A stretch of 64,000 bases of DNA from Sulfolobales archaeon (GCA_038831135.1 JAWBKW010000004.1:29135-93134); one strand, 5' to 3'; shown: positions 1 to 18,112, numbered from the stretch's first letter. Notes: generated from the sequence alone by a model not told the origin. Numbers and translations: made by a program.

Positions 1-322
1 TAATATCCCAGCAAGCTATCTCAATAGCGCTGACTGCAGACATAACCGTTAGGTCCGGATGCCTGAAGTCGTGGTCGTAAGTATACATCCTATGCATTAG
101 GTGCTCAATCCTAAACGGATCTGAACCAACCACGTAACGCCTACATAGATCCTCTAATAACTTAACGTTGGACACCTCCCTACCAACAGCAGCTAACGCT
201 GTAAGCTCACCCACACCCTCAACACCCTCATCAGTAACGAGTTTCAGAAACGTCCAATAACGCCCACCCCTATATGGAGGAGTAGTCTCAACCACAAACA
301 CCTCAAACCCACTAACCCTCAA
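1..322 (-). CDS. Mandelate racemase/muconate lactonizing enzyme family (galactonate dehydratase-like), N-terminal part; runs off the window edge
   Basis: Not in ORF track. Manual translation from TTG at 322: MRVSGFEVFVVETTPPYRGGRYWTFLKLVTDEGVEGVGE...VVGSDPFRIEHL...AVSAIEIACWDI, the typical enolase-superfamily N-terminal capping domain. Confidence 0.85.
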   Translation of the reverse strand, partial: MRVSGFEVFVVETTPPYRGGRYWTFLKLVTDEGVEGVGELTALAAVGREVSNVKLLEDLCRRYVVGSDPFRIEHLMHRMYTYDHDFRHPDLTVMSAVSAIEIACWDI

Positions 323-536
323 ATTAAAACCCCACAAACCTATACACAACCAAACATATAAATACCCTCCAAACCCCAACAACAGATTAAAACCGCGTCC
401 CCCAAGCTAAGAATATACAGCATTGAAAACAATACGTAAATTTCACTCACAATAAAATTGGAAACCATCCCACCATAACGAGAACATGCCACCCAACCCT
501 AACAGAATTAGAGGGGATACCCTATATATTGACTGA

Positions 537-689: not shown

Positions 690-741
690 CAGTAACGCAT
701 CCAAAGTCAGTAAACCCACCTGCCACAACCTCCACCCATAA

Positions 742-2058
742 CTAACTAGTCAGTAGAGGGGGAGGGTTTGAAGGATTAAGCCTCTCCATACTCTCCCTAT
801 ATACTGACATCATCAGTGATGGGTTCTCCGTATGTATGGGTATAAACGCTTTCGGCTTGAATACACCTACTAATTCGCTTAGCTGATGTGGTAGGTAGTG
901 CCCTGAAATCCTTAGCCTGTAGACCTCAAATCCGAAGATATTTAACCACCTAGCTATGACACCTTCCTCAACCTCCTTTACCGTCTCCTTAGGCTCCGGA
1001 TCCATTAGAATGACTGCAGAATTCGTAAACCTCCGCTCCTCACTCCACAATTTAAGCTTCCTAAGGATTTCTAAAAACGCTACAGGCTCTATTACTATGA
1101 TGTAGTCCTTCCTCCGCTTAAACACCTCAGACAATTCAATAATATCCACATACGTTTGCGGGATTAAACCTACCTCTAGAGCTACACATATATTTTCTAC
1201 CTGACGTCCCATCACCTTTTTTAAGTAGTCTACGGCCCATAGTAAACGCTTTGAAGATATAACTACCTGCTTACCGAACATGGGGGCAGAATCTAATATA
1301 AGTGTGAAAGCCTCCAGGTCCAGAGGATCTATAGATACTGCCACTAGGTCGTATGTCGATAGAGCGTATGTCAGTGATTCACGAAATACTTGAGGCGTTA
1401 TTGGGAAGTGCTCTAATTCCATGCTGAAGTTCGTACCTTCAATTAACGCAACATCTATGCCGTCGATACCGAGTTTCCTGGGTACCTCCCTCAGGTCTTG
1501 AAAGTTGAGGGCGGTTAAAAAGTCGAGTCTAAGGTCACCGCTATAGAATAACGTTAGATTTTTACCTATATATAGAAAGGAATTCGCCGGATACGCACTA
1601 TGCGATACGGGTATCGATACAACGCCGTAGCCGTCCTCAGATAGGTATCCCCTATCTGTGAGTTTAACACTATAGCTTGGCGGTAGATATGCTAACCAAG
1701 TAGTAGAGCCCTTATACCAAGTAAATAAGGTGTCTTCAGCTACCCGCACACTTGGGAGAACTACCTCAAGATCTGATGGCACTGCAGACAGAAGACCTAC
1801 ATGATCCATATGCATATGTGATATATACAGCGCTTCAGCTCCACTATAAACCTCTAAGCCAGGAATTATGCCTAAATCCCTAAGCTCAGCAACACCTAAA
1901 GGCTCCACCCTACCACTATAGAAACGTTTTAACTCCCGGAACCTTATACCGTTATCGAAAACTACCTTTCTATCACCATCTCTAACGACTATACAGTTCC
2001 CTCCGATTTCCCTCCAACCACCATATACTTCAATCTTAGCGTTACTATACTCAGACAC
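742..2058 (-). CDS. MBL-fold beta-CASP nuclease, RNase J-like
   Basis: GGWREIGGN, FDNG, SHMHMDH (HxHxDH), SHS, YSGDLR, IEGTN, C-terminal SGH and PIH motifs. Start overlaps the helicase stop by 8 nt. Confidence 0.85.
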   Translation of the reverse strand: MSEYSNAKIEVYGGWREIGGNCIVVRDGDRKVVFDNGIRFRELKRFYSGRVEPLGVAELRDLGIIPGLEVYSGAEALYISHMHMDHVGLLSAVPSDLEVVLPSVRVAEDTLFTWYKGSTTWLAYLPPSYSVKLTDRGYLSEDGYGVVSIPVSHSAYPANSFLYIGKNLTLFYSGDLRLDFLTALNFQDLREVPRKLGIDGIDVALIEGTNFSMELEHFPITPQVFRESLTYALSTYDLVAVSIDPLDLEAFTLILDSAPMFGKQVVISSKRLLWAVDYLKKVMGRQVENICVALEVGLIPQTYVDIIELSEVFKRRKDYIIVIEPVAFLEILRKLKLWSEERRFTNSAVILMDPEPKETVKEVEEGVIARWLNIFGFEVYRLRISGHYLPHQLSELVGVFKPKAFIPIHTENPSLMMSVYRESMERLNPSNPPPLLTS

Positions 2059-5000
2059 TTTCTGTATAGGCGTGATTCCCTACCCCCACGAGTCTATATC
2101 TCCTCGCACCTACTTCAACCCATCTAACATTCCTAGCAGGGTTCCTGATGATTAGGAGCCTAGGCTTCAACGCTATGTTATAGATTATGTAGAGCCAATA
2201 GCCATCACCTAACATCTCCGAATACTTAAACTCTACTTCAGTAAGTTCTACCTGAATGCTATTATCGCTACGACCCTTAACCTCTATAAATCTTATCTCA
2301 CCACTCCGAGGGTCGAAGCTCCGTATATCATAATGCTCAAACTTACTCACATCGGTAGGTTCACGACCACACCTACGTTCATACTCCATCGCGATCTCCA
2401 TAGCCTTCCTCTCAACCTCCTCTACAACTACAGGTGGAGGAGCTCCACGAACTTCATATGCCCTCAGGAACAAGATCCTACCTAGGCACCTCACCTTAGG
2501 TTCTTGTACGTCTCGAGCTAAATCCTTCGGACTCCACGTACTGTGTTGATGGCTGAAACGACCTTCAACACTCCTTACGTAACTAGTAAACTGATTTAGT
2601 ATTCTCCTCATAATGTCTTTAAACTTACTGGAGATCTTCATGAGAAGGTTGCCATCATCGTCTTGAACGCTACTAGCGACCCCAACAACATTCTTCAATA
2701 TCTGCGCTAAAATCTGAAGGAGTTGAATACCTCGAACCTCATCGAATTTATTGCCCTTCCTCCTAACACCAACTACTTCACTATAGTAAGGTCTTCCACC
2801 AGCTTCGAGCTCAACCCTATAGAGAATTAGTTCATCAGCATCTATACCCTCATCAGACACGAGTAGTGTTAACTCGTCTTGAAGTTCAGGGACGTTTTTA
2901 AGCATGCTTAATAGAACTTTATATGTCTCTGAGACATTACCCTTTGCAATAACGTAGTCACCAGATCCAACGAAGATCTTATCCCCCCTATCATCTACGT
3001 CGAGGTTCTGTAGCTCTGCTACTGTGGTAAGTAGGTTGAGTAATGCCTTCTCAGCATGCGACCCGTAGATACCTCCAAGAACTTCATCTAGGAATTTACT
3101 AACCTTAATCTCTTTCTCACCTTCCTCACGTCTAACACGTTCAGAGTACTTCTTCAACGTCTGAAGCATGGCTATGATCTTCCCAACATACTCCTCTAAG
3201 CCGGTCCCTCCCCTACTTACGAACTCTAACCACGCCCTATACTCGCTAAACTGGACTCTCTCACCTCTCTCACCAGTCATAGGCACTAGGACTAGAAGGT
3301 CGGTATTATACCCTTCACCTCTAGCCTTAACCCCTAACATATCGATCTCAAGCTCCTCGCCTATCGGCACGCTACGCTCCACACCTGAGATATACCATGA
3401 TAGGAGCTTCGCATAAAGTATCTCAAGCGCCTTCAAATCACTTTCCACCGATAGAAGGACAGTATAACTTATGACATCCTTCTTCTGACCTAACCTCCAC
3501 ACCCTGCCAATACGTTGCACAATTTTTATCGGACTCCATGGAGGTTCGTAATGCACTACAACATTCGCGTACTGAAGGTTTAGACCTTCCGAAGCCACAT
3601 CGGTTGACACTAAGACATGTACGTAGTCTCTAGCTAACCATTCCTTCACATCCTCAATTGAAAACTCCTGCTTCTTCAAACTACTTAGCAGTACTGGAGG
3701 CTCAATACTATCCGACGTGATGAGTGCTACTCTATCACCCCAATAATTAGGCAACCTCTCCCTAAGCTTTTCAAATATGTATTTAGCCGTATCTCTAAAC
3801 TCAGTAAACACAACAACTCTATCTCCTTTACTTAGATGAGTTTGAATGATGCTCACAAGGGTTTCCAATCTCGAATCACGTTCCCCAATAATGTTTTGAG
3901 CGAGTCTATGCATGTCGCTAAGGGTCTCCCTATCACGTTCGTCTAACAGCACAGAGCATCGTTCAGCAAAACTGTTTAAAATGTCATCAACGTCAACAGT
4001 CTTAGGTCCTAAAACCTCATCGTATTCCTCAAAACCTCCGTAACCGAGAATAGTTTCTATAAGTTCGTCAGCCTCACGTTCGAGGTCTTCGGAAGTACTT
4101 TCATCACCTCCTGCACCAAGTCTTAGAGTTCTAACCCTCCTCTGTATTATTTTATCTAAAGTACTGAGAGCTGCTTTCGGGCTTGATGACGCTCGTTTAG
4201 CAATTAAAACAAGTAGTAGTCCTAGAGCTGATGGCTTCTCACCTACTCTGCCATAGTATTTAACTAGTATGCTTCGTAGAAACTCTATGAGCTTGCTGTG
4301 GAACACCATCTCATTACGCGAGGCTTCTACCGTCCGAGCCTTAAACTTACAGTTCGTAAATATGGGCCTTCTCTCATATACGTTGTTAACATCCAACTTT
4401 GTCCGCCTAAAGGTTAAAGACCCATTAATAAGCCTGTAGAACTCCTCACTATCAAGCTCATTAACACTAGCGGAGAGGTGCGGATCTATAAGCCTTATTC
4501 TCTCAATATAATCATCAGGCTTCCCCCTATGCGGCGTCGCAGATAAAAGCATTAGGTTAACACATGTGTTTTGAGCAAGCTTTGACACTAGGTTGAGGCG
4601 CTGCGTTTCACGATTGCCTACCTTCCCAACCCTATGCGCCTCATCAATAACTACAACGTCCCAACCTACCTTCAGAACTTTATCTCGGTACTCCTCCCTC
4701 TTCACAAGGTCTATCGACGCTATGTAAACACCTCTGGGGAAGCCCTTAGCTAGGAGGTCTTGAACCGTTCCACGCTCTATTTGAAATACTTCCGTTTTTG
4801 AAAAACCGAACCTCATCAACTCATCTCCCCACTGATGTGTAAGAATCCTAGGTACGAGGATTAACACCCTTTGCGCTAATCCCACCTCACATAGATACTT
4901 AACCAACATCATAGCTTCTACCGTCTTACCGAGACCTATCTCATCACCTATGAGGACGCGTATAGGCCTGCGTGGAAAAAGACTTACTAGGAGTTCTAAC

Positions 5001-5134
5001 TGGTGGGCATACGGGTAAACAGGCTCACCAGACATATGATGACGTAACATAAACATATATGGATGATAGTTAAAGCCGTCTAATACGGTTTTAATTAAGC
5101 TTAGCCTAGCTGATTCAAGCGGTATCATCACCAT
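2051..5134 (-). CDS. SNF2-family helicase with C-terminal DUF3883 (PD-(D/E)xK) nuclease domain
   Basis: DEIGLGKT, DEAH, SATPH, TDVASEGLNLQ, QRIGRVWR. C-terminal ERKAMEIAMEYE...YDIRS...FIEVKG...YWLYII. Confidence 0.9.
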   Translation of the reverse strand: MVMIPLESARLSLIKTVLDGFNYHPYMFMLRHHMSGEPVYPYAHQLELLVSLFPRRPIRVLIGDEIGLGKTVEAMMLVKYLCEVGLAQRVLILVPRILTHQWGDELMRFGFSKTEVFQIERGTVQDLLAKGFPRGVYIASIDLVKREEYRDKVLKVGWDVVVIDEAHRVGKVGNRETQRLNLVSKLAQNTCVNLMLLSATPHRGKPDDYIERIRLIDPHLSASVNELDSEEFYRLINGSLTFRRTKLDVNNVYERRPIFTNCKFKARTVEASRNEMVFHSKLIEFLRSILVKYYGRVGEKPSALGLLLVLIAKRASSSPKAALSTLDKIIQRRVRTLRLGAGGDESTSEDLEREADELIETILGYGGFEEYDEVLGPKTVDVDDILNSFAERCSVLLDERDRETLSDMHRLAQNIIGERDSRLETLVSIIQTHLSKGDRVVVFTEFRDTAKYIFEKLRERLPNYWGDRVALITSDSIEPPVLLSSLKKQEFSIEDVKEWLARDYVHVLVSTDVASEGLNLQYANVVVHYEPPWSPIKIVQRIGRVWRLGQKKDVISYTVLLSVESDLKALEILYAKLLSWYISGVERSVPIGEELEIDMLGVKARGEGYNTDLLVLVPMTGERGERVQFSEYRAWLEFVSRGGTGLEEYVGKIIAMLQTLKKYSERVRREEGEKEIKVSKFLDEVLGGIYGSHAEKALLNLLTTVAELQNLDVDDRGDKIFVGSGDYVIAKGNVSETYKVLLSMLKNVPELQDELTLLVSDEGIDADELILYRVELEAGGRPYYSEVVGVRRKGNKFDEVRGIQLLQILAQILKNVVGVASSVQDDDGNLLMKISSKFKDIMRRILNQFTSYVRSVEGRFSHQHSTWSPKDLARDVQEPKVRCLGRILFLRAYEVRGAPPPVVVEEVERKAMEIAMEYERRCGREPTDVSKFEHYDIRSFDPRSGEIRFIEVKGRSDNSIQVELTEVEFKYSEMLGDGYWLYIIYNIALKPRLLIIRNPARNVRWVEVGARRYRLVGVGNHAYTESV

Positions 5135-5571
5135 ACCCTGTAGAGTAGTCTGAATGCCTTTGCAACTCTATACACGCCCCAATACCCCACCTCTTCATAA
5201 GCTTCTAAAAATCTTGAATACCAGAATAGGACTTCAACCTCATTCAATCCCTGCACGGTTCCTGCAAGGTCTACGGAGTTATTAATATGCTGCCTAACGC
5301 CTGAGTAGACCACTAATCTACGTAGGTAGGTGTCGGGGTCCTCACCTTCCAACACAAGGATGTCCTCACCTATGAGGTTGTATGGTGCGGCTATACCGCT
5401 GAGGAATGCCTTAACGTAGTCCTTACCAACCCTAGCCTCGAAGATGGGGTTTGAACCCCTTACAGGTTCTGATAAATACATGTACGATACGTCAACCCTT
5501 CGGCGGGACTTCCTACCAACGAGTTTTGAAGTGAAGACCACGTACCGCTGAATCAACGGCCCCCTACTCAT
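5128..5571 (-). CDS. Small accessory protein of the DUF499 system, DUF3780-like
   Basis: Lies between the DUF499 ATPase and the helicase. C-terminal GLNEVEVLFWY...RVAKAFRLL resembles the DUF3780 tail (L.PEERWWLY...WRKALR). Confidence 0.55.
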   Translation of the reverse strand: MSRGPLIQRYVVFTSKLVGRKSRRRVDVSYMYLSEPVRGSNPIFEARVGKDYVKAFLSGIAAPYNLIGEDILVLEGEDPDTYLRRLVVYSGVRQHINNSVDLAGTVQGLNEVEVLFWYSRFLEAYEEVGYWGVYRVAKAFRLLYRVW

Positions 5572-5605
5572 TACTCAAACCTACACCTATTTTAGTCCAG
5601 TAGTT

Positions 5606-8600
5606 TTAATCGAAGCACACCTCAGTTACATACTGACTTAACTCGTTAAATTCATTCTCTAGTAGTTGCGGCAGAGGCTTTATCTCAGTAGCCTTAAGGC
5701 TTAGCCTAATAGATAACTTCACCTCACCAAGTTGTAATGCGTTAATAATACTACCCACTATCTTATACGCTTCATCTGGCGCGACTTCATCAAACTCTAG
5801 GATAACACGAGTTGACTTCTCATCCCTCTTATCCCTTCGCAGCACTAACTCTAACTTACCACCTATGTTAAACCCTCTAAATCTTGCGTTAATTATCTGT
5901 AATGGCTTTAGGTAGGGCCTATCTATTTTAACCCTAACTTCCTTCACACTCCTATCATAAATTTTAGGTAGTCCCTTAACACATTTTGTAACATCAGCAG
6001 GCACTACGCTGACAGATACTATTACTACTGCCCTAGCGACTTCAGTTCCATCAGGTAGGAGTAAGCGGATAAGTTCCTGACTAGTACCATCAGTTAGCGA
6101 TGCTCGGTACTTCCAGACAAACTCGTTTCTAGGTACGTCAGCATTAAATACTGCCTTACTCGGACTTATCTCACCTGAACTACTCTGAATACTGATTTCA
6201 CCAACGAAGTTTCCTAACCTCTCAACGGTGAACCCCAGCTCAACACTCCCGCCCGGCTCGACGGTAACCTCCTTCCTCTCCGGGTATATCTTTATCACAG
6301 CAGTACGCTCCCTCTTAAGTAAGGGAGCGTTCCTAAGCACATCTATGTCGAATTTTTCAATACTTTCAACGACATCCTCTACACGGTAGAGCTCCTCACC
6401 GTATCTGACGAGATATTCAATTATCTTTAAACCCTCTGCCACGCTCTTAAGGCGTCTTAACTGTTCGATTAAAGCCTCCCTCCATGAGAGGACCTGACAT
6501 TCATCCGCTATAACTGGTGGGATTTCAGCTTTCGCCACTACGACCCTCCTACATTCTTCATCGGTTTTACATGCCTCAATAACCTTAAAGTATACGTTAT
6601 CCCTACACAGCAAACCTATGCTTAAGTTGTTCAAACCACCAGCTATAGCCCGCTTAATAGTATCCTCCCTAGCTACTGGTAGCCTCGGATTTGAGTAGAA
6701 GTAACCAATAATGTCTCTAACGCTCTTAGGTGCTGAGACCTCAGTTAGGTCTATGCCGACGCCCCTCAGGTAATAGTCAAGGGTTTCGAAATCCATATCA
6801 AGTACGATCTTCCTAGGCTGGATGCTCTGCAGGGCATGTTCAACGCCCTCAACTACTGTATCCATAATACTTAGGTCGGCCTCCTTAACGGTATTCCTAC
6901 CCTCAACATATGCTGGGTAAGCGACGGAATTAAATAATGATAAAATACTCATTAACATGTCGCTGTAAGTCTTACTACAGTACTCCTTTAATTTATTCTC
7001 AAGAACCTTCTTAACGATTTCTCTCTCCTCTACGGTGTAATCCGACACTAATTTCTCTACATGCCCTTCAGCCTCAACCTCTCTGCAAGCTTTATGCTTC
7101 CGAACAAGATCGAAGATAGCCACAGTTCTCTCCTTACTACTTGGGAATGCAACGAATATCGTATTAGCATGCCTTCGAGGACCACCGCTTTTAGTTGTGT
7201 AAATTATTTCCTCGAATACGGGTTGTCTTGAAGTAGGGTTTGAGGGGACATCAACGCATGCGTAGAGAATGTATTTAGGAGCATCGTAATCAAGTTTATC
7301 ACAGCTATAGGAAACTGTTGATAGTTCACGATCGAATATCTTACCAACTTCCACGGTACTCTTCTTCTTACTCTCAATGCGTGTCTTCAACACGTTCTTA
7401 GCGCTTGCCTCAATCTCTTTAATAACATCTAAGTCTGAGACGTGCTTAGCTCTATCCTCTACGTACTTAACTGGTGTTATGAATTGAGTGAACCACAACC
7501 TACGGGTCTTCTCATCCTCCAAGACATATACGAGGTTATGCTTCATCCAATCAACAGCATCTACGACATCCTTAGGGAGTAAACCCCTATCACTAAAGCT
7601 CTTAGGTTCGTAAACCATTACAGCAAGTTCCTCCGGCGTTGGGAAGACCTCATGTTTCGGAACTAGGCCACCACCGTATACGAAAGTCCTTACAAGTAAT
7701 GTATTCGCAACTATCTGTGCAAGCCATAACTTCTCGTAACTTCCCGCCCTCTCCTGCACATCACTCTTAATAACAGATCTAAACCCCTCAAATCCCTGCA
7801 TTAGGTAAGATGCTAGTACTTCATCCGATACTAAGTTTATATGCCAAGGCATTACGAGCTCGTAACTCTCCTTACCCGACGCCACAGATCTAAGTATGCG
7901 TCTGCTAATCTTCAGTAAGTCCCGCGTCTTCTGCAGCTTAACATGTTTGTCGAGAATGTCGATGAGGGTATCAATATATGTCGGGTGGAATGGATATGTG
8001 TCCACGATTTTCTGGGCAACCCCCTCAGCAAGCCCGCGGTCGAAGACCTCACCATCCCTTGAGTAATTACTGTATAGGGCTTTCCTCATCTCAGAAGCCT
8101 TATGGCGGTCTACACTTTCAAAGAGTCTCACCCTCAGCAATGCTGGTACGTTTCTAGGGCTTACAGGCTCTACGTACATCACAGCTACGCGGCTGAGACT
8201 CTTCACTATCGCCTCTATAGCATCTCTAATAGCTATATATGTAGTCTCCACACGCTCTACCTCACCTCTACCCCCAATAGCCACTGGCACTGAAACAACC
8301 AACACGACATTCTTAGCGATATCTACAGCCTTAACCAACCTCTCAATAAAACTCTTTAAAGCACTAACATAGCTTGTTTGAGAGAGTATACTCTGTATGT
8401 AATTTGCTAATTCATCGACTAAGATAACTACACGCCTATTTTCAAAGAGTTTTATGAGGGTGTCAACCTCCGGAGCTACGAGTTGCTCATCATATACCTT
8501 CAATAGGCTGTAGCTACCGAGGCAGTGAGCTATATACCCCCACAGAGTTCTCACACTATACGCACCTACGCCTAACGGCGCTACTGGGTGAGGCGCTAAC

Positions 8601-9019
8601 TGCTGCATATAGCCATCCACTACGATAACATCGGTAGATTGTACAATACTTGAAATCCTATTAACTACTTTCTGAACTTTCTCACGCGCACCTACCTCTT
8701 CGGCGGCGGCTTTAACTAATTGATTTGAGTTCCTTAATGCGTGGTATATAGTTATAAGGGTGTGTGTTTTACCGCCGCCGTATAGAGCGCTGAGTAGTAC
8801 TACCTTCCTACCTTTACCCTCAACCAACACGTCAGTTATGTCATCCAATATGTCAATCATTTGCTGCGTTATCAGCGTGAGTGAGAAGAACTTGGCGGGG
8901 TCTCCGTAGATGTCGGGTTCTTTACCCAGTACAACACCTCCAAGGCTAGGTGCGAGTCTCTCATCTAAACCTTCATCGAATACATCACTACGAATCTTAT
9001 TACTCCCGAGAAGCACCAT
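5606..9019 (-). CDS. DUF499 family AAA+ ATPase with C-terminal beta-sandwich (Ig-like) region
   Basis: YGGGKTHTLI Walker A, TLWGYIA, ILVDELANY Walker B, YPFHP, QKTRDLLK; beta-rich tail EVTVEPGGSVELGFTVER. Confidence 0.9.
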   Translation of the reverse strand: MVLLGSNKIRSDVFDEGLDERLAPSLGGVVLGKEPDIYGDPAKFFSLTLITQQMIDILDDITDVLVEGKGRKVVLLSALYGGGKTHTLITIYHALRNSNQLVKAAAEEVGAREKVQKVVNRISSIVQSTDVIVVDGYMQQLAPHPVAPLGVGAYSVRTLWGYIAHCLGSYSLLKVYDEQLVAPEVDTLIKLFENRRVVILVDELANYIQSILSQTSYVSALKSFIERLVKAVDIAKNVVLVVSVPVAIGGRGEVERVETTYIAIRDAIEAIVKSLSRVAVMYVEPVSPRNVPALLRVRLFESVDRHKASEMRKALYSNYSRDGEVFDRGLAEGVAQKIVDTYPFHPTYIDTLIDILDKHVKLQKTRDLLKISRRILRSVASGKESYELVMPWHINLVSDEVLASYLMQGFEGFRSVIKSDVQERAGSYEKLWLAQIVANTLLVRTFVYGGGLVPKHEVFPTPEELAVMVYEPKSFSDRGLLPKDVVDAVDWMKHNLVYVLEDEKTRRLWFTQFITPVKYVEDRAKHVSDLDVIKEIEASAKNVLKTRIESKKKSTVEVGKIFDRELSTVSYSCDKLDYDAPKYILYACVDVPSNPTSRQPVFEEIIYTTKSGGPRRHANTIFVAFPSSKERTVAIFDLVRKHKACREVEAEGHVEKLVSDYTVEEREIVKKVLENKLKEYCSKTYSDMLMSILSLFNSVAYPAYVEGRNTVKEADLSIMDTVVEGVEHALQSIQPRKIVLDMDFETLDYYLRGVGIDLTEVSAPKSVRDIIGYFYSNPRLPVAREDTIKRAIAGGLNNLSIGLLCRDNVYFKVIEACKTDEECRRVVVAKAEIPPVIADECQVLSWREALIEQLRRLKSVAEGLKIIEYLVRYGEELYRVEDVVESIEKFDIDVLRNAPLLKRERTAVIKIYPERKEVTVEPGGSVELGFTVERLGNFVGEISIQSSSGEISPSKAVFNADVPRNEFVWKYRASLTDGTSQELIRLLLPDGTEVARAVVIVSVSVVPADVTKCVKGLPKIYDRSVKEVRVKIDRPYLKPLQIINARFRGFNIGGKLELVLRRDKRDEKSTRVILEFDEVAPDEAYKIVGSIINALQLGEVKLSIRLSLKATEIKPLPQLLENEFNELSQYVTEVCFD

Positions 9020-9022
9020 ATA

Positions 9023-12000
9023 CTACGACCCCCTCCTAGAGAACTTTAATAAACCCTGCTGAGGAACCTCACCTAAAGCATTTAGTAGAACTGCTACAGC
9101 CCTCCTCTCACTCTCATTCTCAGGAAGTACGTTGTAGAGTATTCTTGCAAGTGCTACAGCTTCTTCAACGTACTGAGGACTCCTCGCCTTAATCTCGGAG
9201 TAACGCTTCATGAATACCTCCTTCGGCGTACTTATAGCTAAGTATTCAAGTAGGTGTAACGCATCGATAGAGGACCTTATGGTCGGTGATGAAGGACTTA
9301 AGCCTCTATCAGCTAATGTAACCTCTATAGACTGCCGAACATCTTCTACATGTAGAGCATGCTTAGGCTCAATAAGAACCACCCTATCATCCTCCCTACG
9401 CACCAGCCTCAAAGCCTCAAGCATCGAGAGGTCTGACCGCGTACCTATAGAGAATATTACAGCTGTACTCCTATCCATATACCTCCTATCCGCTCCAGGC
9501 CTCCTCTCAATAAGAACCTTAGCTAGGAGGTAGAACGTGGATTGAGGGCTGAATCTCTTCTCAGCAACTATGGACCCGAGTGACCGCGCTATAGCTTCAG
9601 CCGTAGCTGGGTAAACATGATTCTCAACTAAATTCTTCAAACCATCCTCCCTCAAATCACCAACACCAACTAAGGACCTGTACTGAGTGAAGTGAGATAA
9701 CACGCAACCAAGCACGGCAACAAACAAATCAATACTACTACGCCCCGCCCTCCTAAGATCCCCAGCAAACTCACTACACGCACCAACAGACCTAGCGTAA
9801 ACCTCATCAACAAGGGCCTCCCCAGAAACCCCCTTCCTCCACACAACAACTAGTGAGGTATCTAGACTAACCTTACCGCGAGCAGTAACCCTCTGAGCCG
9901 ACTCAGTAACAATGCTATGTGCAGCAGTAATCCTAAGGCCTGCGTTAAGCCAGCCAGCCTCAAGAAGAGCCTCCCAAGCATCAGGAGTTGTATGAGCATA
10001 ATAAGTAGCAATAACACCACCATCACTAAGCTTATCAACCATAGATTTAAACGACTTAGCTAAAAGCCCACTAAAATGATCGAAAGAACTTACCCCCAAG
10101 CCGAAGAACTTACCCCTACCCTCAGACTCGCTAACCTCCCTCACCGCAAACACCTTCCACTGAACCTCAACCTCACTACCAGCCTCATCAAAGAAGGCTT
10201 CAGGATAAAACCTAGGAGCCACCATTAAAACTCCCCCAACCTCACTAACATCACTTAAAGCTCTCTTCAACCACACATAATAGAAGTCGCTGAGCTCCGC
10301 GTAGGCAACATCATCCCTGTACGGCGGGTCCGTAACGATTAGGTCGAACCTCTCGTCCCCGAGCTTGCCGAGAACCGTGGCATCGTCCAGCACAACCTCA
10401 ACACGGCTAGGACTACCCGAAACAGCGTTGATAAGGTAATTTATACCGTTGTTTACAGTATTTATGTTTCTAAGAAATGAGCCAGTAATTGGAACTGTAG
10501 GCGGTAGTTCACACCAATTCCAAACCATGGCAATTCCTCTGAACGTTAATGCTCCTGCCGCTAGCGCACCCATTATTGTATCTGCTCTTACCGGTGAGAC
10601 TATCGAGGAAAATGTTGCATATCTCACTAGTGTTATTGCTAGGTATGTTGTTACTGCTTCTGCGTATTTGTGTGCTTTCTGCCTGTCCCAGCCCTGCTCC
10701 AGCTTCTCCTCCTCTACCCTCCTACCGGCTTCGCGTACCAGCTTGACGAGCTTGACTAGGGTTAGGAGCTGGCGCGGGTTGAAGAATTGATACCATTTCT
10801 CGACAACATCTACTGGGAAACGAAGACCACCCCCGACGTTTCCATAAGGTGGTATCGGCTCTGTCGGTATGTCTGGGTCTCCCCATATCTGCTTGAGCTT
10901 CTCTAGTGCTTTCCAGGGGTTCTCGTTGTCTTGTTTGGTAGTTGGTTCGAAAATCATTTTTCTGTTTATTATTTTTACTTTGGCTATTAGTCTTGGTCTT
11001 GCTTTACTTTCTAGTAGTTGTTGTAGTGTTATTTCTCCTGAGAGGTATTTTTCTAGGTTTTGGTTCCACTCTCTTAGTGCTTGTTTGACGTACCATCCTT
11101 CGTTTTTTCCTTTACTTGTTATTGTGTTATTGCATAGTAGGCATGTTGCTGTTTCTCTTCTTGCGTCTATATTTGGTCTTGGTATGTTGTATCTTATTCC
11201 ATGTGTTTCTACTACTCCTTGTTTCGTATTTATCCTTGCCTCTATGTTGTGTTTGTTTAGTTCTTTATTTAGATCTACGATATCTATGTATACGTTGTTT
11301 CCAGCTACTTTGGGTGTCATCCAGGCTAACCTACTGTACGTACCCCTCCTAGCCCTTTCCTCAACTTCTTCCTCCTCTGACGGCCCCTCCTTAGATACTC
11401 TTGCCAGCCACCAGTTCCCTATTAGTGGTGTGTATCTGTTGCAGTGGGGGCATCTCGCTTCCCACGAACCTATGTATACGGCTACGTCTTCATCGTATAG
11501 CTTCTTTACGTCTGAGTCATTCTTTAATTGCTCTATTACCCACTCACCCCACCTCTCTAGGTCTCTGATTAACGCACCATCTAGCTTCTCATCAACGACC
11601 CACTTAGGTATTTCTAGGACTGCTTTAAGGAATATGTAGGCCGTTGGTAGGAGTTCCACCGCAACTACGTCACCTACACCTAACCTAATAGCTTCCAGGG
11701 GTATTGAACCAAAACCTGCGAATGGGTCTAGGAGCCTAGCATTCTTGAGTAAATCCCTATACCTCGGGGCTACGAGTGGGTTGTGCTTATGTGGAACGCC
11801 TTCAACACCTATAAGTCTAACCATACGGGAAAACTCTGCTGGCTCAGTTGATTCAGGAAGGAGGGATGCGGCCACAGTAGCTCTAGCGCTAATCAACGGC
11901 TTTCGAGTCCACCAAAACACCATCTCCCAAATCGGGGGCCTACCACCCCCACCCTTCTCCCTCGCAGAAGCCTTATTAATCAGATCTACGGGAAATCTAT

Positions 12001-12031
12001 CCGACCCAATAAATCTACGCTCCATAAACAC
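9023..12031 (-). CDS. DUF1156-containing adenine-specific DNA methyltransferase
   Basis: WWTRKPL, LDPFAGFGSIPLEA (motif I), CPHC/CLLC, FNPRQLL, TDPPY...YAELSDFYYVWLKR (motif IV). Confidence 0.92.
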   Translation of the reverse strand: MFMERRFIGSDRFPVDLINKASAREKGGGGRPPIWEMVFWWTRKPLISARATVAASLLPESTEPAEFSRMVRLIGVEGVPHKHNPLVAPRYRDLLKNARLLDPFAGFGSIPLEAIRLGVGDVVAVELLPTAYIFLKAVLEIPKWVVDEKLDGALIRDLERWGEWVIEQLKNDSDVKKLYDEDVAVYIGSWEARCPHCNRYTPLIGNWWLARVSKEGPSEEEEVEERARRGTYSRLAWMTPKVAGNNVYIDIVDLNKELNKHNIEARINTKQGVVETHGIRYNIPRPNIDARRETATCLLCNNTITSKGKNEGWYVKQALREWNQNLEKYLSGEITLQQLLESKARPRLIAKVKIINRKMIFEPTTKQDNENPWKALEKLKQIWGDPDIPTEPIPPYGNVGGGLRFPVDVVEKWYQFFNPRQLLTLVKLVKLVREAGRRVEEEKLEQGWDRQKAHKYAEAVTTYLAITLVRYATFSSIVSPVRADTIMGALAAGALTFRGIAMVWNWCELPPTVPITGSFLRNINTVNNGINYLINAVSGSPSRVEVVLDDATVLGKLGDERFDLIVTDPPYRDDVAYAELSDFYYVWLKRALSDVSEVGGVLMVAPRFYPEAFFDEAGSEVEVQWKVFAVREVSESEGRGKFFGLGVSSFDHFSGLLAKSFKSMVDKLSDGGVIATYYAHTTPDAWEALLEAGWLNAGLRITAAHSIVTESAQRVTARGKVSLDTSLVVVWRKGVSGEALVDEVYARSVGACSEFAGDLRRAGRSSIDLFVAVLGCVLSHFTQYRSLVGVGDLREDGLKNLVENHVYPATAEAIARSLGSIVAEKRFSPQSTFYLLAKVLIERRPGADRRYMDRSTAVIFSIGTRSDLSMLEALRLVRREDDRVVLIEPKHALHVEDVRQSIEVTLADRGLSPSSPTIRSSIDALHLLEYLAISTPKEVFMKRYSEIKARSPQYVEEAVALARILYNVLPENESERRAVAVLLNALGEVPQQGLLKFSRRGS

Positions 12032-12486
12032 ACCGGAACCTAACTACCTACCCAACCTTATGTTATGCAGGAAATACATAAAAACTTTTTAGCCAGTAAT
12101 CCCCAAAAATACCTCACAAAATCCTTACAATGATTACTTTAAAGTCCCCTCCAGCACTAATCACCGTACATATAAAAACACCGCGAAGTACTACCTACTG
12201 AGGAATAAGTTAAAAATAATATAAGAAAACACCGAAGAAGTTCTTAAGGATGCCCATTGATGTCGCCATCTCCACGGACGTCCTCAGACCATTTCCGTAA
12301 TTCATGACGCGGAATGCGAAGATCGGGTCCAAGATCTTCGGGCTAAGTAGGGGCTACGGAACTCTGGGAGGCAACTCATAAAGCATAATGTGCCGTCCAG
12401 AAGATCATGAAGTTAAAATTAAGCAACTCAGAGAACACGTTTCGGAATTTAGAGGTTTTTAAGCGTTCTTACCATTATATTCCTGT

Positions 12487-13569
12487 ATGACGATGAGATT
12501 ATTGCCGACCATCCGAAAGATTATTTTTATCATCTTTTATAGTATTTATTTCCTTTGCTCGTTACGCGTCTTTTACACTCTCATATTCCAATCGCAGAGA
12601 CTCGTCTCTGATTATGTCTATCTTGGAGTCCCTCTGTCATATTCGCTATTCTACTTATTATGTTACTTTACGCGTTGGTCAGCTAGTCAGACATGCGGGT
12701 CATCGCGCTTGATACTCCCACTATTAGGTAACCGGATTTCTATGCTTACACATTTTATCCTGTTCTTCGGACTCTTCCTAATAATGTTCTCTCTAATATA
12801 TGTCGTGGTTGGTATTTTCATCTTTCCATTGTTTATCTTCCCTAGCTACGGACTGATCGATTATAACATATTCGTTACATTCCTTATAATAGCGTCAGTA
12901 ATTTCTGCGATAGGCTTAATGCTCGTATTTAAACATCCTACTAGGTCACACTTTATTATCGGAGTTTTCATGATAGCTACGGTACTCAGCATACCGGTAG
13001 CACCTCTGATGGTCAGCTTCGTGCCTTGGATTGAGGATGCGTATAAGAATGAGTTGAGGGGTTATGAGGCTGTATTAGGTTATTGCTTTGCAAATACCTC
13101 CCCACAATGCTTATTTGAAGCGGTGAAGGAATATACGAACCGCTTTATAGGCACTTACAAATATCCGTATCCGAAGCCGAGACAGTTCCTTATCGACGCG
13201 CTGAATGCTGAATTCGTTAAAAAGCTTGCAGTAATTCTTAAGACAGGTGCGTGTGAGGACTACTCGTTAGGACTGACAAAACTTATAGAGGATATCTACG
13301 GTCTTAAGACCAGGGTTGTAGTCTTCGATGTGTGGGACCATGCAATGCCTGAAGCCGAAATCAACGGTACTTGGTATGTACTCGACCTAGTATTCACAAC
13401 CCCTAACAACATAGTAAAGGCCTCAGACTACGCCGGACACCTCAGCAAAATATGCAGAGAGCTAGGAGGGAACTACTGCGAACTCTACGAAAAGTTGGTG
13501 AAGAGGGAGGCAAAGATAATGGACGGAAGCAGTAGAGAAGACCTAACAAAAGAGCACGGCTTCAGCTAG
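12487..13569 (+). CDS. Multi-pass membrane protein with C-terminal transglutaminase-like (PNGase-like) Cys-His-Asp domain
   Basis: About 5 hydrophobic N-terminal segments, then KTGACEDYS...TRVV...DHAMPEAEINGTWYVLD. Confidence 0.8.
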   Translation: MTMRLLPTIRKIIFIIFYSIYFLCSLRVFYTLIFQSQRLVSDYVYLGVPLSYSLFYLLCYFTRWSASQTCGSSRLILPLLGNRISMLTHFILFFGLFLIMFSLIYVVVGIFIFPLFIFPSYGLIDYNIFVTFLIIASVISAIGLMLVFKHPTRSHFIIGVFMIATVLSIPVAPLMVSFVPWIEDAYKNELRGYEAVLGYCFANTSPQCLFEAVKEYTNRFIGTYKYPYPKPRQFLIDALNAEFVKKLAVILKTGACEDYSLGLTKLIEDIYGLKTRVVVFDVWDHAMPEAEINGTWYVLDLVFTTPNNIVKASDYAGHLSKICRELGGNYCELYEKLVKREAKIMDGSSREDLTKEHGFS

Positions 13570-13601
13570 CAGGCACTCACTAGCTGGCATGATAGTTGAG
13601 A

Positions 13602-13619
13602 CTGAGGCTGGAGCCTCAG
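13602..13619. repeat. Perfect 8-bp inverted repeat downstream of the transglutaminase gene
   Basis: CTGAGGCT-GG-AGCCTCAG. Confidence 0.45.
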
Positions 13620-13899
13620 CCACTCCCTCCTCTATTTGATTTTGTGAGTAGAGGTGTAGGACCTCTTAGAACTACGGCATGACGGGAAGAACGAATATCT
13701 CCGTTGCAACCACAATGCCAGGCAGTTCTCTTTACTTCGACTGCAGCGACCTCCGCGAAATCTATAACCCTGTCAAAGAAGGTAGTGAGGAAGTTTGAGA
13801 GAAGTTTTCCTTATAGGGATAGTTCTATAGGAGGTGTTAGGTAATTTTAAGGTATTTAACGTTTGAGGTTAGGATGTTTTGGAAGTGGGGGTCTTTAGG

Positions 13900-14910
13900 T
13901 TAGTACCAGAATGTTGTGAAGGTGTGTTCGGGGACCATGTACTTAGGGTCTTTAAATGCTTTGCAGGTGGGGGATAGGGTGCAGCCTCCGTCGCGTCCTC
14001 TTAGCTCCGCACGCCCAGTACTGCATGAGTATCTACATGCGGGTTTATCTCTGGTGCAGCATTTCCTGCCGAAGCTCCATAGCATGTCGTCTAATATGAA
14101 TGGGTTTAGGGATGAGGTGGTTGATACTTCCTTATATGCCTTCCTAGCTGTGAGTCTTAAGATTACGTCCATTTCTTCACTGAATTCCTCCCCAGAGGCT
14201 ATGGCTGTGAGGGTTCTGTCGTCAACTTCGATTAGGCCTGTCCTTAATGCTATCCTACTTAGGTGGTTGTCTACTGGGACTTCCTTATTATGCTGGTCCA
14301 CTATTTCTAATACCTTCCTCCTCTCGAGGAACTTTGCTAGTAGGAAGGCTTTCTTCTCCACAGGGTCTTGGTAGGCTTTAAACACCTTAACAATGTTTAG
14401 AAATCCTCCAGCAACGTCTCTAAGCCTGCCCCTAGACTCTAAGACCACGTTGTATGGGTCGCCGTCAAATAATTTAAGTAGCTTTAAGCCTAGGTCTCTT
14501 AGGAGTTCTGCTCTAATGTCGGGGTCGGGGACTCTGACCTTCAACTTACTGCCTAATGTGAGCCAATCCACGACCTCCCTAGTAGTTATCTTAGCCAGCC
14601 TCCCAGCCTCGAAGAAACTTAAATCCTCCTCAAACTTCATACTGCCAAGCCTGTATAGGAGGTCTGCCCCATGGTGGGTCTTACCATCAATTACTGCCTC
14701 GTAAGGTATCCCCGAACCGCTAAGCCTATGGTCCATAGCAACCATCACTAAGAAGTAAGCAGTTACAGTCCTCCTATCAGCACTAGCAGGCGGGTAGAAA
14801 TCAACATCTAAAAACATATCCACCTCCAAACCAGTAGCCATAAAGGAGAACAGCCTACCGAGCTCACCAACCCTAACTCCGTTAATCCCTAAGTAAATTA
14901 CTACCACCAC
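13900..14910 (-). CDS. HhH-GPD superfamily protein with C-terminal Fe-S cluster loop (queuosine-salvage/N-glycosylase-like)
   Basis: DPVEKKAFL, PVDNHLSRIALRTG, LDDMLW, Cys-rich tail CCTRDKPAC...CTLSPTC like an EndoIII 4Fe-4S loop. Confidence 0.65.
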   Translation of the reverse strand: MVVVIYLGINGVRVGELGRLFSFMATGLEVDMFLDVDFYPPASADRRTVTAYFLVMVAMDHRLSGSGIPYEAVIDGKTHHGADLLYRLGSMKFEEDLSFFEAGRLAKITTREVVDWLTLGSKLKVRVPDPDIRAELLRDLGLKLLKLFDGDPYNVVLESRGRLRDVAGGFLNIVKVFKAYQDPVEKKAFLLAKFLERRKVLEIVDQHNKEVPVDNHLSRIALRTGLIEVDDRTLTAIASGEEFSEEMDVILRLTARKAYKEVSTTSSLNPFILDDMLWSFGRKCCTRDKPACRYSCSTGRAELRGRDGGCTLSPTCKAFKDPKYMVPEHTFTTFWY

Positions 14911-15200
14911 ATAATGTAGGTCGCGTAGCCTTATTACCCTTCACACCTCATAAAACTACCAATTAAAATCGGTGTAGGTCAGCATCCTCACCCAATCAGA
15001 CCTCGTAAACCCATCACCTAACTCAAAGCCACTTAAAAACCTCCACACCATGATGATAGCGTGTATCAACAATAAACATCACAAACGAACACCCACCTTA
15101 GCTAAGTAGTCCCTTAGTAGGGATAGGAACACCTAAACCTCACCCCCATGAAAGTGTGGGGTTTACTCACTTTTAGCAGTGTTTGTATTGGCTGGCGTTC

Positions 15201-15977
15201 TTAGTCCTCAATGGTTGTGTTGGTGTAGGTCCTTACCGCTACTGCAGTGCTCAATACTGCGAATATACATAGTAGGCCGACGTCAACTGCTGGTTCGAAT
15301 CTCGACGTCCCTGTCAGGCTGTACCTCATCCCGTCTACGGCGTAGGTTACTGGGTTTACATAAGCTATTAATCTTACCCAGTCTGGTAGGTTGTCAATCG
15401 GATAGAAAACCCCGCCTAGGAATATGAGGGGCATCGTTATCAGGTTTATAAACATTTGGAAGCCCTCCATACTGGATAGCTTTAGAGATATGATTAGGCC
15501 TAATGATGTGAAGCACATTGAGAGTATTAGACCGTATAGCGTTGCTGGTAGGATGCCTGGGAGTTTCATTTGAGGCGTTATGAAGTACATGAAAGTTAGG
15601 ATTATGAGGCCTTGGGAGATACTGACTAATGAGTCGCCGAAGGCCCTACCCAGTATGACTTCAGCCCTCGACGTAGGTGCTACTAAGGTCTCCTTCAAGA
15701 ACCCGAACCTCTTATCCCATATTACCGACATCCCACTCATGAAGGAGTTCATTATTATTGTCACTGCAACCATACCCGACGCTAGGTAGGTTATGTAGTC
15801 GAGGCCTCCGAAGACTGCCCTAGCTTGAGGGAAGTTGAATATGTTGCCCCAACCCAGTCCGAAGAAGACTGTCCACAGGATGGGGTTTACTAACGCCATA
15901 ACTAACCTAGACCTAGCAGCTATGAACCTCTTAACCTGCCTGTAAGTCATCGTTATGAAGCCGTCCACAACTACCAC
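15201..15977 (-). CDS. ABC-2 type exporter permease (DrrB-like)
   Basis: WDKRFGFLKETLVAP, FYPIDNLPDW, NPVTYAVDGMR; six TM segments. Confidence 0.9.
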   Translation of the reverse strand: MVVVDGFITMTYRQVKRFIAARSRLVMALVNPILWTVFFGLGWGNIFNFPQARAVFGGLDYITYLASGMVAVTIIMNSFMSGMSVIWDKRFGFLKETLVAPTSRAEVILGRAFGDSLVSISQGLIILTFMYFITPQMKLPGILPATLYGLILSMCFTSLGLIISLKLSSMEGFQMFINLITMPLIFLGGVFYPIDNLPDWVRLIAYVNPVTYAVDGMRYSLTGTSRFEPAVDVGLLCIFAVLSTAVAVRTYTNTTIED

Positions 15978-16272
15978 CTCCTAATAAATCTATGGGGGAT
16001 TACGAAATCCTCTAACGAGTCCCTCAACTCCCTCCCAGTTAAGTGTATGAAGACCTCGTTTAGTGTTGGGCGTTTATAGCTGACCTCAGAAACCTCAACC
16101 CCTAACTCAGCAGTTAATTCGAGGAGTTTAGGTATTGAGGTTGAAGCATCCCTCACAACAACCTCCATTAAGTCCTCCCTAACCACCTTACACCTAATTA
16201 TGAAGTCAGCCTCTAAACACTGCTTAAGGTCTTTCAAGCCGCTTTTAAACCTCACGTATATTACCTCATTAC
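15971..16272 (-). pseudogene. 3' fragment of DrrA-like ABC ATP-binding gene (C-terminal domain), cut off by the IS
   Basis: NEVIYVRFKSG...KRPTLNEVFIHLTGRELRD is the typical DrrA C-terminus; the frame is open up to the IS left end. Confidence 0.85.
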
Positions 16273-16358
16273 AATTTCGAAAGCCTCGCCCTTTAGGGCG
16301 GGGATGGTGTGGTAAGGTTTATAAGTTCTGTATTCTCTAATGTATTCTTGGGATAGCC

Positions 16359-16787
16359 GTGGAGGGCGACTCCCAGACGTGGTTTGAGTTTAGGAGCACT
16401 AGGTATGCTAGGTACTGGTGTGGCTACCACTTCGTGTGGATTCCTAAGTACCGTAGGGATATTTTGGTGGGCGGTGTTGCTGAATACGCTAGAGAGGTGC
16501 TGAAGCAGATACTGCTTGAGCTCGGATGCGAACCTATAGCTATCGAGGTTCTGCCAGACCATGTCCACGTGTTCTGCTCATGCCCCCCACGGCTATCCCC
16601 AGCCTACGTGGTGAACTACCTCAAAGGTAAGAGCGCTAGGAGGATACTGCAGAGGTTCCCTGAGCTGAAAACCGATGCTAGCAGAGGTAGGCTATGGTCT
16701 AGAAGCTACTTTGTAGCAACAGTTGGCAATGTATCAGCAGATGTTGTTAAGAGGTATGTGGAGGAGCAGTGGGTGAAGGAGGAGTGA
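16359..16787 (+). CDS. tnpA: IS200-type Y1 HUH transposase
   Basis: YHFVWIPKYRR, DHVH (HUH), LKGKSAR, LWSRSYFVATVG, catalytic Tyr in KRYVEEQ. Confidence 0.95.
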   Translation: MEGDSQTWFEFRSTRYARYWCGYHFVWIPKYRRDILVGGVAEYAREVLKQILLELGCEPIAIEVLPDHVHVFCSCPPRLSPAYVVNYLKGKSARRILQRFPELKTDASRGRLWSRSYFVATVGNVSADVVKRYVEEQWVKEE

Positions 16788-18079: not shown

Positions 18080-18112
18080 GGCGGGGAGGAGGTCAGTGTG
18101 ATGTTATTCTCC
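17950..18112 (+). ncRNA. Putative omega/reRNA: TnpB guide scaffold from the right end plus flank-derived guide
   Basis: GC hairpins at the tnpB 3' end (ACCCC..CCCCGT..ACGGGG..GGGGT) and the right-end hairpin. Location inferred from known TnpB biology; boundaries approximate. Confidence 0.45.

Follow-up and report, generated by a model that had tools for sequence, protein, structure and literature searches.

Which defence system is formed by an operon that joins a DNA methyltransferase (MTase), an AAA+ ATPase and a helicase-nuclease, and is the RNase J-like gene at its end a genuine part of it? These questions are raised by a stretch of 64,000 nt from a Sulfolobales archaeon (GCA_038831135.1 JAWBKW010000004.1:29135-93134), hereafter the window, with positions counted from its start. 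According to the ORF (open reading frame) listing, it contains a cassette of five co-oriented minus-strand ORFs at 742-12031, numbered here in their reading direction (Table 1). We consider it fairly probable that this cassette is a horizontally mobile operon of restriction-modification (RM) type acting against viruses and plasmids, an archaeal/thermophile variant of the Hma system with the subunit roles proposed below. Gene content, motifs and gene order were read directly. Genes 1 and 2 are separated by 3 nt (9020-9022) and genes 2 and 3 by 34 nt (5572-5605); genes 3 and 4 overlap by 7 nt (5128-5134), and the stop of gene 4 overlaps the start of gene 5 by 8 nt (2051-2058). Exactly this spacing had been given in an initial annotation of the locus, and the MTase, ATPase, helicase and PD-(D/E)xK motifs described there as intact could all be read in the translations. 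The cassette is far beyond chance, because its ORFs are long, the family matches are strong and the gene order is repeated in dozens of genomes.

Pfam and PADLOC searches agree with the earlier description of an RM-like, BREX-related cassette with DUF499, DUF1156 and SNF2-nuclease proteins, and the three large proteins have the make-up of Hma, a three-gene operon named by Payne et al. (2021; PMC8565338; here and below, statements on papers cited by PMC number refer to the parts that were available). In the classification of Rakesh and Krishnan (2026; PMC12839542), Hma is the Type-1 BREX-related (BR) system, with a Tudor-SNF2-restriction endonuclease helicase. Its HmaA protein combines SNF2 and NOV_C domains, and defence against T4 requires its nuclease, which acts as a nickase (PMC11232893). 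Gene 1 matched DUF1156 (PF06634; 1.9e-12) and MTase domains in Pfam, as well as the PADLOC models MTase_II (4.7e-220) and HmaB (4e-46). Its motif I (LLDPFAGFG, residues ~100-108) and DPPY motif (568-571) are separated by a target-recognition insert of ~460 residues bearing two CxxC pairs, at 194 and 297; this is the Hma arrangement of a DUF1156 N6-adenine MTase with the target-recognition domain (TRD) nested in the MTase core. Gene 2 has the DUF499 AAA+ ATPase of Hma (PF04465, 5.4e-142; HmaC, 3.7e-48), with Walker A ALYGGGKT and Walker B VVILVDE at 198-204; no HEPN family was reported in its family scans. Gene 4 contains SNF2-rel_dom, Helicase_C and NOV_C/DUF3883 (6.4e-21) domains and matched HmaA (3.8e-59, model positions 99-614). 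The helicase motifs GLGKT (67), DEAH (164), SAT (198) and QRIGRVWRLGQ (540) and the nuclease motifs EHYD and IEVKG are present, and the SNF2 helicase with its C-terminal PD-(D/E)xK (NOV_C) nuclease, typical of Hma, is predicted to be active. Compared with bacterial Hma helicases, gene 4 is short of ~75-90 residues at the N-terminus, a segment designated Tudor in PMC12839542: the helicase core begins near residue 33-57, the ORF cannot be extended upstream, and by BLAST residues 6-24 align with residues 77-90 of two Type-1 helicases. No PLD/HKD domain was found in gene 4 by Pfam, and the PADLOC model PLD_Helicase reached merely 2.3e-23, over the helicase core.

Table 1. Features of the cassette and its surroundings (window positions).
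Feature	Position	Strand	Length and remarks
Gene 1, DUF1156-type N6-adenine DNA methyltransferase	9023-12031	-	1002 aa
Gene 2, DUF499 ORC/Cdc6-like AAA+ ATPase	5606-9019	-	1137 aa
Gene 3, small α+β protein of uncatalogued family	5128-5571	-	147 aa
Gene 4, SWI2/SNF2 helicase with C-terminal NOV_C (DUF3883) PD-(D/E)xK nuclease	2051-5134	-	1027 aa
Gene 5, stand-alone MBL/β-CASP nuclease, RNase J-like	742-2058	-	438 aa
Upstream intergenic region, presumed promoter	12032-12486		A/T-rich TATA-like stretches, e.g. TTTTTATG ~45-55 nt before GTG
Variable segment with the cassette and ORF 12487-13569	731-13878		~13 kb; tblastx of G004, G001 and G003 flanks

Gene 5 encodes a metallo-β-lactamase (MBL) protein of the β-CASP group. 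In Pfam only a sub-threshold match to Lactamase_B was obtained. The protein has the motif HMHMDH at residues 81-86. At E ~1e-9 to 5e-10, Helicobacter RNase J (PDB 7pcr, 8cgl) aligned with it from end to end and EF2904 (2az4) with part of it. In 21 sequences with 32-72% identity, the MBL residues D35, H81, H83, D85, H86, H153 and D175 and the β-CASP residues E207, T209 and N210 (E-G-T-N), S385, G386, H387 and H409 are all invariant; since the catalytic residues are conserved in this way, gene 5 is under selection as an active nuclease.

The distribution of gene 5 confirmed the earlier assignment of an RNase J-like fifth gene to the cassette. A search of the 351 class genomes detected its product in 33 (and in 26 of the 202 good-quality ones). 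Thirty class loci were fetched with 1.5-kb flanks, and in 28 of them the SNF2 gene is located directly upstream of the β-CASP gene, the stop and start usually overlapping; the two exceptions (L005, L018) are N-truncated β-CASP remnants. The complete order MTase, DUF499, small protein, SNF2, β-CASP was seen in 19 of the 22 larger stretches; one of the remaining three (L053) had no small ORF found in the gap, and two end at contig edges. A wider scan of 185,579 species genomes gave 80 loci. Cassette genes were adjacent to β-CASP in 15 of these, where the β-CASP protein is at least 32% identical to that of the window or a fragment of such a protein, and 12 of the 13 full-length close homologues have SNF2 directly upstream. 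Five-gene order was also detected in Methanomethylicota (L060), Bathyarchaeia (L064, L068), Vulcanisaeta (L067) and a Thermodesulfatator metagenome-assembled genome (MAG; L065), and close homologues were named for Nezhaarchaeales, Njordarchaeales and Thermofilum as well. A decayed copy was present in Archaeoglobales (L072), and one N-truncated β-CASP orphan had no cassette (L066). None of the 64 distant loci, including those of Planctomycetota and Bacillota, had a cassette gene; their β-CASP proteins are at most ~26% identical over the full length or match in the N-terminal part only. This β-CASP subfamily thus occurs almost only directly after the cassette helicase, an exclusivity that was observed directly. 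As a separate observation, a group of distant loci (L074-L093 and others, from Planctomycetota, Bacillota and DPANN) represents stand-alone β-CASP proteins of EF2904-like length, ~21-26% identical to gene 5, with no cassette gene near. The complete cassette in the bacterial-labelled Thermodesulfatator MAG suggests that it was either passed from archaea to bacteria among thermophiles or wrongly binned.

Within the cassette, β-CASP is a facultative gene. DUF499 was found in 78 of the 351 class genomes, and 20 DUF499 loci were sampled from genomes with no β-CASP match. The MTase, DUF499 and SNF2 genes stand in the same order in 15 of them, and the 12 loci with enough downstream DNA also have an ORF of 136-171 aa immediately before the helicase gene. 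Of these 15 loci, 12 continue for 1.5 kb or more past the helicase without any β-CASP gene and are thus four-gene cassettes; the other three were too short to tell. The remaining loci of the sample have no SNF2 match (L147, L155) or end at contig edges (three loci). Alternative fifth genes were looked for in the β-CASP-less cassettes and rejected, as the ORFs downstream of the helicase are unrelated (MFS transporter, peptidase A24, HhH-GPD glycosylase, or no family). The two loci with no SNF2 match in 7 kb downstream (L147 and L155, from G178 and G177) contain the best-scoring DUF499 genes of the class, each after a DUF1156 MTase, and thus have a different architecture.

The first gene of related cassettes is 36-70% identical to gene 1. 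In a quick maximum-likelihood tree of 38 MTases, for which a careful search was incomplete and from which L055, L060 and L065 were left out because none of their ORFs reached 500 aa, the 34 archaeal sequences group in a single clade with support 100, which a long stem divides from the four Type-1 and Type-2 references; how the references are placed relative to one another is uncertain, as their branches are long. In this tree, five-gene cassettes alternate with four-gene ones, and at least six changes are forced by well-supported branches. The identity of β-CASP to the window protein tracks that of SNF2, MTase and DUF499 (Spearman 0.76, 0.68 and 0.65 across 19 loci, which are kin and not independent). 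Because of the interleaving and of this co-variation, repeated loss of an ancestral fifth gene would be the simplest reading. No repeats of note were found in or around the MTase gene, and its TRD region has no second copy in the same genome. In three DNA metagenome runs and one RNA library, contig depth over the recognition insert (window 10209-11136) is 3 to ~25 times that of the flanks, and the contigs end or swap short segments at ~10438-10628 and 10785-10860; they look like mosaic variants of the recognition region common to community members.

The two nuclease domains of the cassette are not always kept together. Among 20 helicases linked to β-CASP, 12 retain NOV_C (EHYD and IEVK[GT]) and eight have lost it, with neither an HMM (hidden Markov model) match in Pfam nor the motifs in the alignment, whereas the ExK motif is kept in all 12 helicases of β-CASP-less cassettes. 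The eight NOV_C-less helicases (L043-L050) belong to one Sulfolobaceae-like clade, are ~900 aa long and have a remnant reading YIKIV. All eight cassettes keep β-CASP, the only recognisable nuclease there, and the three of these loci that were placed in the β-CASP alignment bear all invariant residues. This pattern, again observed directly, is compatible with a β-CASP protein able to serve the restriction function. The same loci have further peculiarities. In L043-L048, an additional MTase-like ORF of ~450-520 aa abuts the β-CASP gene, convergent in L043-L045 and co-oriented in L046, and in L044, L045 and L048 a second large copy of the DUF1156 MTase stands beside the first, divergent and partly broken.

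The initial annotation had taken gene 5 for an RNA-level effector. As it stood, this was an unsupported assumption, because β-CASP enzymes cut RNA and/or DNA, DNA nucleases being included among them (PMC10910872), and because NOV_C was lost only in cassettes that keep β-CASP, a pattern that suits a nuclease of the restriction system at least equally well. Its elaborated form, in which gene 5 serves as a backup or abortive-infection arm by degrading transcripts of the virus or the host and DNA restriction is left to the helicase with NOV_C, is a possible but doubtful alternative. The best matches of gene 5 are to RNase J (TIGR00649, 9e-09; RNase J1, 2.5e-06; PDB 7pcr and 8cgl); Cas14, the β-CASP effector of archaeal type VII CRISPR, cleaves RNA (PMC10910872); BREX and BR systems often carry endoRNase backups such as HEPN, PIN and Schlafen (PMC12839542); and a facultative gene is what would be expected of a backup module. 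With the RNase J matches and the RNA cleavage by Cas14, an RNA target is as well grounded for gene 5 as a DNA target. However, the score is 34 bits against a cut-off of 400 for TIGR00649 and 26.5 bits against 820 for RNase J1, and gene 5 has the MBL and β-CASP motifs of RNase J but not its C-terminal dimerisation domain: it ends ~25 residues past motif C, whereas a 553-aa RNase J runs ~160 residues further. Artemis is among the weak PDB matches, and the DNA nucleases of the β-CASP group speak against an RNA target as well; no Cas14 chain was among the PDB sequence matches at E ≤ 1. Moreover, the eight cassettes with β-CASP as their only nuclease would restrict nothing at the DNA level if it acted on RNA.

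The nearest known system was also reconsidered. The initial annotation had named Gao_RL, which corresponds to Type-2 BR with DUF3780 and an HKD-helicase lacking Tudor (PMC12839542). The Hma models for genes 4, 1 and 2 are far ahead (3.8e-59, 4e-46 and 3.7e-48) of the PADLOC Gao_RL models PLD_Helicase, DUF1156_MTase and DUF499 (2.3e-23, 2.3e-21 and 1.6e-22). The scores of the Gao_RL-type NCBIfam models were 108 bits against a cut-off of 1000 (DUF1156_antiphage), 90 against 1200 (DUF499_antiphage) and 131 against 1100 (helicase model NF042964). For BLAST comparison, four plasmid loci were used: L058 and L059 as bacterial Type-1 examples, and L056 and L057 as Type-2-like ones. Bit scores of the window MTase were 179/106 against Type-1 and 88/79 against Type-2, those of the helicase 170/169 and 74, and those of the ATPase 124/111 and 111/107, the latter being equidistant. 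The HMM and BLAST scores and the type of nuclease place the cassette closer to Hma/Type-1 BR than to Gao_RL/Type-2 BR, since the HmaA, HmaB and HmaC models score best in PADLOC and the Gao_RL equivalogs fall tenfold under their cut-offs. Two of the three differences that had been listed there are therefore found in described forms: a DUF3883 nuclease in place of PLD is the hallmark of Hma (PMC11232893), and the MTase-first order has been described for archaea (PMC7641849).

Gene 3 had been called DUF3780-like, for which we found no support at the sequence level. It has no match in Pfam, PADLOC, NCBIfam or PDB sequences. A profile built from 22 homologues and searched in 1.84 billion proteins gave 97 representative clusters of relatives, all stand-alone and of 55-205 aa; the gene is always positioned between the ATPase and helicase genes. 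None of 81 family members matched DUF3780 (PF12635), and two matched DUF7680 (PF24728) weakly, at E ~1e-3. The window protein did not reach the Pfam gathering score of DUF7680 (24 bits); hhalign comparison of the two families gave a probability of 60% (E 8.7e-5) over 62 columns in the C-terminal helices, which speaks for no more than a distant relationship. An AlphaFold2 model based on the homologue alignment (pLDDT 93.3) predicts the order β-β-β-α-β-β-α-α-α-α, in which the fourth and fifth strands are short, and the elements succeed one another in the same way in the DUF7680 model (pLDDT 82.7). Foldseek found no match of the gene 3 fold in PDB at E ≤ 0.1, and the ESM Atlas model was poor (pLDDT 0.39) with no usable match. 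The DUF7680 family search detected nothing in the same genome and in five other cassette-bearing genomes. In the Type-2-like plasmid loci of Sinorhizobium (L056) and Natrinema (L057), the gene right after DUF499 encodes DUF7680 (1.2e-44 and 2.1e-38) and not DUF3780. Gene 3 may accordingly be a distant DUF7680-like component that co-occurs with a Tudor-less helicase in both system types; the resemblance is suggestive, not proven. A split-off Tudor domain was considered for gene 3 and rejected, as no Tudor-like structural match was found and the fold has five helices. As to DUF7680 itself, in these two loci it occurs in PLD-helicase systems with Gao_RL order, in the slot reported as DUF3780; the protein collection contains ~2,430 of its relatives, and no mention was found in the literature searched.

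These data make it very unlikely that the cassette is a Gao_RL/Type-2 BR system with gene 3 as a divergent DUF3780. Such a system would account for the small stand-alone protein after DUF499 and for the helicase without Tudor, both as in Type-2 (PMC12839542), and the 4-5 strands and five helices of the gene 3 model resemble DUF3780, described there as a four-stranded sheet with five helices, so that a shared fold of the two is possible. It would leave unexplained the missing PLD/HKD domain, the NCBIfam scores an order of magnitude under the cut-offs, the different gene order and the higher scores of the MTase and helicase against the Type-1 examples. PF12635 matched none of the 81 family members and none of 301 phylum genomes, the latter being weak evidence since the control genomes likewise gave no match.

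The cassette lies in a variable segment (Table 1). In the congener G004, the sequence corresponding to window 2-331 and 568-730 is followed directly by 13879-14949; because G004 joins the flanks 568-730 and 13879-14949 in this way, the ~13-kb segment is an insertion or deletion difference between congeners. The cassette is missing at the syntenic site in three congeners (G004 and two more), and the accessory, island-borne status of the locus was thus directly observed. It also bears on a reading in which the cassette is a module for DNA transactions or epigenetic regulation, for example RapA-like remodelling combined with methylation, and not for immunity. Gene 4 does match RapA (2.4e-44), and the archaeal defence role is argued from homology; the patchy, island-borne distribution with frequent pseudogenisation, the two nuclease domains and the homology to HmaA, which is experimentally defensive (PMC11232893), make this regulatory role extremely improbable. 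Finally, that gene 5 is an unrelated housekeeping gene for RNA processing which merely adjoins a defence operon is effectively refuted by its distribution: several sources annotate it as 'ribonuclease J' and archaea do have β-CASP RNases, but it is present in few genomes of the class, was not found with the window query in four congeners, directly follows SNF2 in nearly all class loci, usually with an overlap, accompanies the cassette in other phyla and in a bacterium, and lies inside the 13-kb variable segment.

The working of the operon can be proposed from what is known of the families, from which its defence function, the methylation self mark, the subunit roles and DNA as the β-CASP substrate are all derived. 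The DUF1156 enzyme would mark host DNA with N6-methyladenine (m6A) at sites read by the nested target-recognition insert, and the ORC/Cdc6-like DUF499 ATPase would act as scaffold and sensor. The Tudor-less SNF2 translocase would bring the NOV_C PD-(D/E)xK nuclease onto unmarked DNA. The 147-aa DUF7680-like protein is probably a dedicated subunit in the slot of the DUF7680/DUF3780 proteins of PLD-helicase (Type-2) systems, present where the helicase has no Tudor domain. β-CASP, with intact motifs and co-inherited with the cassette, may be a dedicated, facultative second nuclease that processes invader nucleic acid once the helicase-nuclease has attacked; its most likely substrate is nicked or unwound DNA, on which it would act as a 5'-3' exo/endonuclease, and it would take over as sole nuclease where NOV_C was lost. 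Going further, we tentatively suggest an uncatalogued fourth flavour of DUF499 BREX-related systems, typical of thermophilic archaea, in which a Tudor-less Hma-type helicase works with a stand-alone adaptor of the DUF7680/DUF3780 superfamily and with a β-CASP enzyme that, as a nick- or end-dependent exonuclease, finishes NOV_C-nicked DNA in the 5'-3' direction and is the sole restriction nuclease in one Sulfolobaceae clade; we hold this to be less than probable. In bacteria, the corresponding task after restriction falls to RecBCD-type enzymes; to our knowledge, archaea have no such enzymes.

Several points weigh against the favoured picture of a mobile, RM-like Hma variant with DNA-directed β-CASP. 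The evidence on this cassette is all drawn from sequence, and the defensive role of the Hma operon goes back to one bacterial study of HmaA alone (PMC11232893). By sequence, gene 5 matches RNases (RNase J) best, and Cas14, the sole β-CASP effector known in immunity, cuts RNA. Many sister cassettes do without β-CASP, so it may be an added backup and not a working partner of the helicase. The clade that lost NOV_C represents a single evolutionary event. The link of gene 3 to DUF7680 is weak, both in hhalign (60% over 62 columns) and in the family search (2/81 at E ~1e-3). Pseudogenised copies exist elsewhere (L009, L054, L055, L072 and L010); the β-CASP gene is broken in the first three of these, and L009 has a split DUF499 gene as well.

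Upstream of gene 1, the A/T-rich intergenic region is presumed to contain the promoter of the cassette, judging from its TATA-like stretches. A scan for sigma-70 promoters and intrinsic terminators, whose model is unsuited to archaea, gave nothing above shuffled sequences, and no tRNA or Rfam family was found in the window. Window sequence was detected in hot-spring metagenomes of several studies. In the metatranscriptome library X8, contigs 95-99% alike were found in all five genes, and two of them bridge the small protein/DUF499 and DUF499/MTase junctions; these RNA-library contigs are compatible with co-transcription, not proof of it. Bins 2785-3248, 12065-12992 and 13457-13900 were without cover in X8, and 465-928 nearly so, a lack that is not a finding.

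The other ORF of the variable segment (12487-13569, plus strand, 360 aa) was considered as a sixth component and rejected, since no homologue was found in any related locus. Its N-terminal half is hydrophobic and multi-pass, it has no family match, and by our own reading of the sequence its C-terminal Cys...His...Asp pattern recalls transglutaminase-like proteins; one partial homologue is present in the congener G002. Further along the window, an IS200/IS605 element (TnpA, 16359-16787; TnpB-like, 16769-18079) splits the ATPase gene of an ABC transporter (15971-18663) into a C-terminal piece (15971-16255) and an ABC_tran piece (18076-18663), which are contiguous in the congener G001.

If the fourth-flavour reading is true, gene 5 would represent the first β-CASP nuclease in innate, methylation-based immunity. 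The main text of PMC12839542, in the parts available, names PD-(D/E)xK, HNH, HKD, TOPRIM/OLD, HEPN, PIN and Schlafen as effectors of BREX and BR systems, and β-CASP is not listed among them: neither 'lactamase' nor 'CASP' occurs there, and the sole 'metallo' belongs to an unrelated reference. In the literature searched, no paper joins β-CASP with DUF499 or DUF1156 with lactamase. The cassette also illustrates natural nuclease swapping, with NOV_C lost and β-CASP kept, and it connects a Type-1-like system, in which the helicase is Tudor-less, with the small adaptor-like proteins (DUF7680) of Type-2 systems. Complete Sulfolobaceae-like genomes carry the cassette, and if genetically tractable relatives do too, the gene roles, the methylation motif and the β-CASP substrate would be directly testable.

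Compared with known systems, the cassette lacks the PglZ phosphatase/nuclease and the BrxC-type ATPase of BREX types 1-6, BrxC reaching only 0.0014 and PglY 3.8e-06; Type-3 BR, for its part, has PglZ and iSTAND and no named equivalent (PMC12839542). Gene 5 shares with RNase J and EF2904 the MBL and β-CASP core with all motifs, and its length is near that of EF2904 (429 aa), whereas its distribution is accessory and defence-linked, not housekeeping. Like Cas14 in archaeal type VII CRISPR-Cas (PMC10910872), it would be a β-CASP nuclease recruited as an effector of immunity; Cas14, in contrast, is RNA-guided via Cas5/Cas7 and has a Cas10-like C-terminal adaptor. Gene 3 resembles DUF7680 in being a stand-alone protein directly after DUF499 (~150-200 aa), in its order of secondary-structure elements and in the hhalign match, and differs in having no Pfam match. 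Gao_RL has the same DUF499, DUF1156 and SNF2 components, a small protein right after DUF499 (DUF3780 according to PMC12839542, DUF7680 in the two plasmid loci) and a helicase without Tudor; it differs in its N-terminal PLD/HKD nuclease and in its gene order of DUF499, small protein, MTase and helicase. The archaeal operon of COG1743, DUF499 and SWI2/SNF2-nuclease, predicted to be a restriction system and in some cases followed by EVE (Bell et al. 2020; PMC7641849), agrees with the cassette in how the three large genes are arranged; its partner is EVE, and the passages available mention neither a small gene nor β-CASP/MBL, 'lactamase' having no occurrence. Hma/Type-1 shares with the cassette the DUF499 ATPase, the DUF1156 MTase with nested TRD and the SNF2 helicase with C-terminal NOV_C, and is the best PADLOC match for all three large proteins. 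It differs in order (helicase, MTase and ATPase in two bacterial examples, as against MTase, ATPase and finally helicase here), in its first ~75-90 helicase residues (the Tudor region) and in its three genes (PMC8565338, PMC12839542) as against five, or four in the β-CASP-less sisters, and the archaeal MTases stand in a clade separate from the Hma and Type-2 references (support 100). What is new relative to Hma is the Tudor-less helicase and two extra dedicated genes, one for the small adaptor-like protein and one for the β-CASP nuclease.

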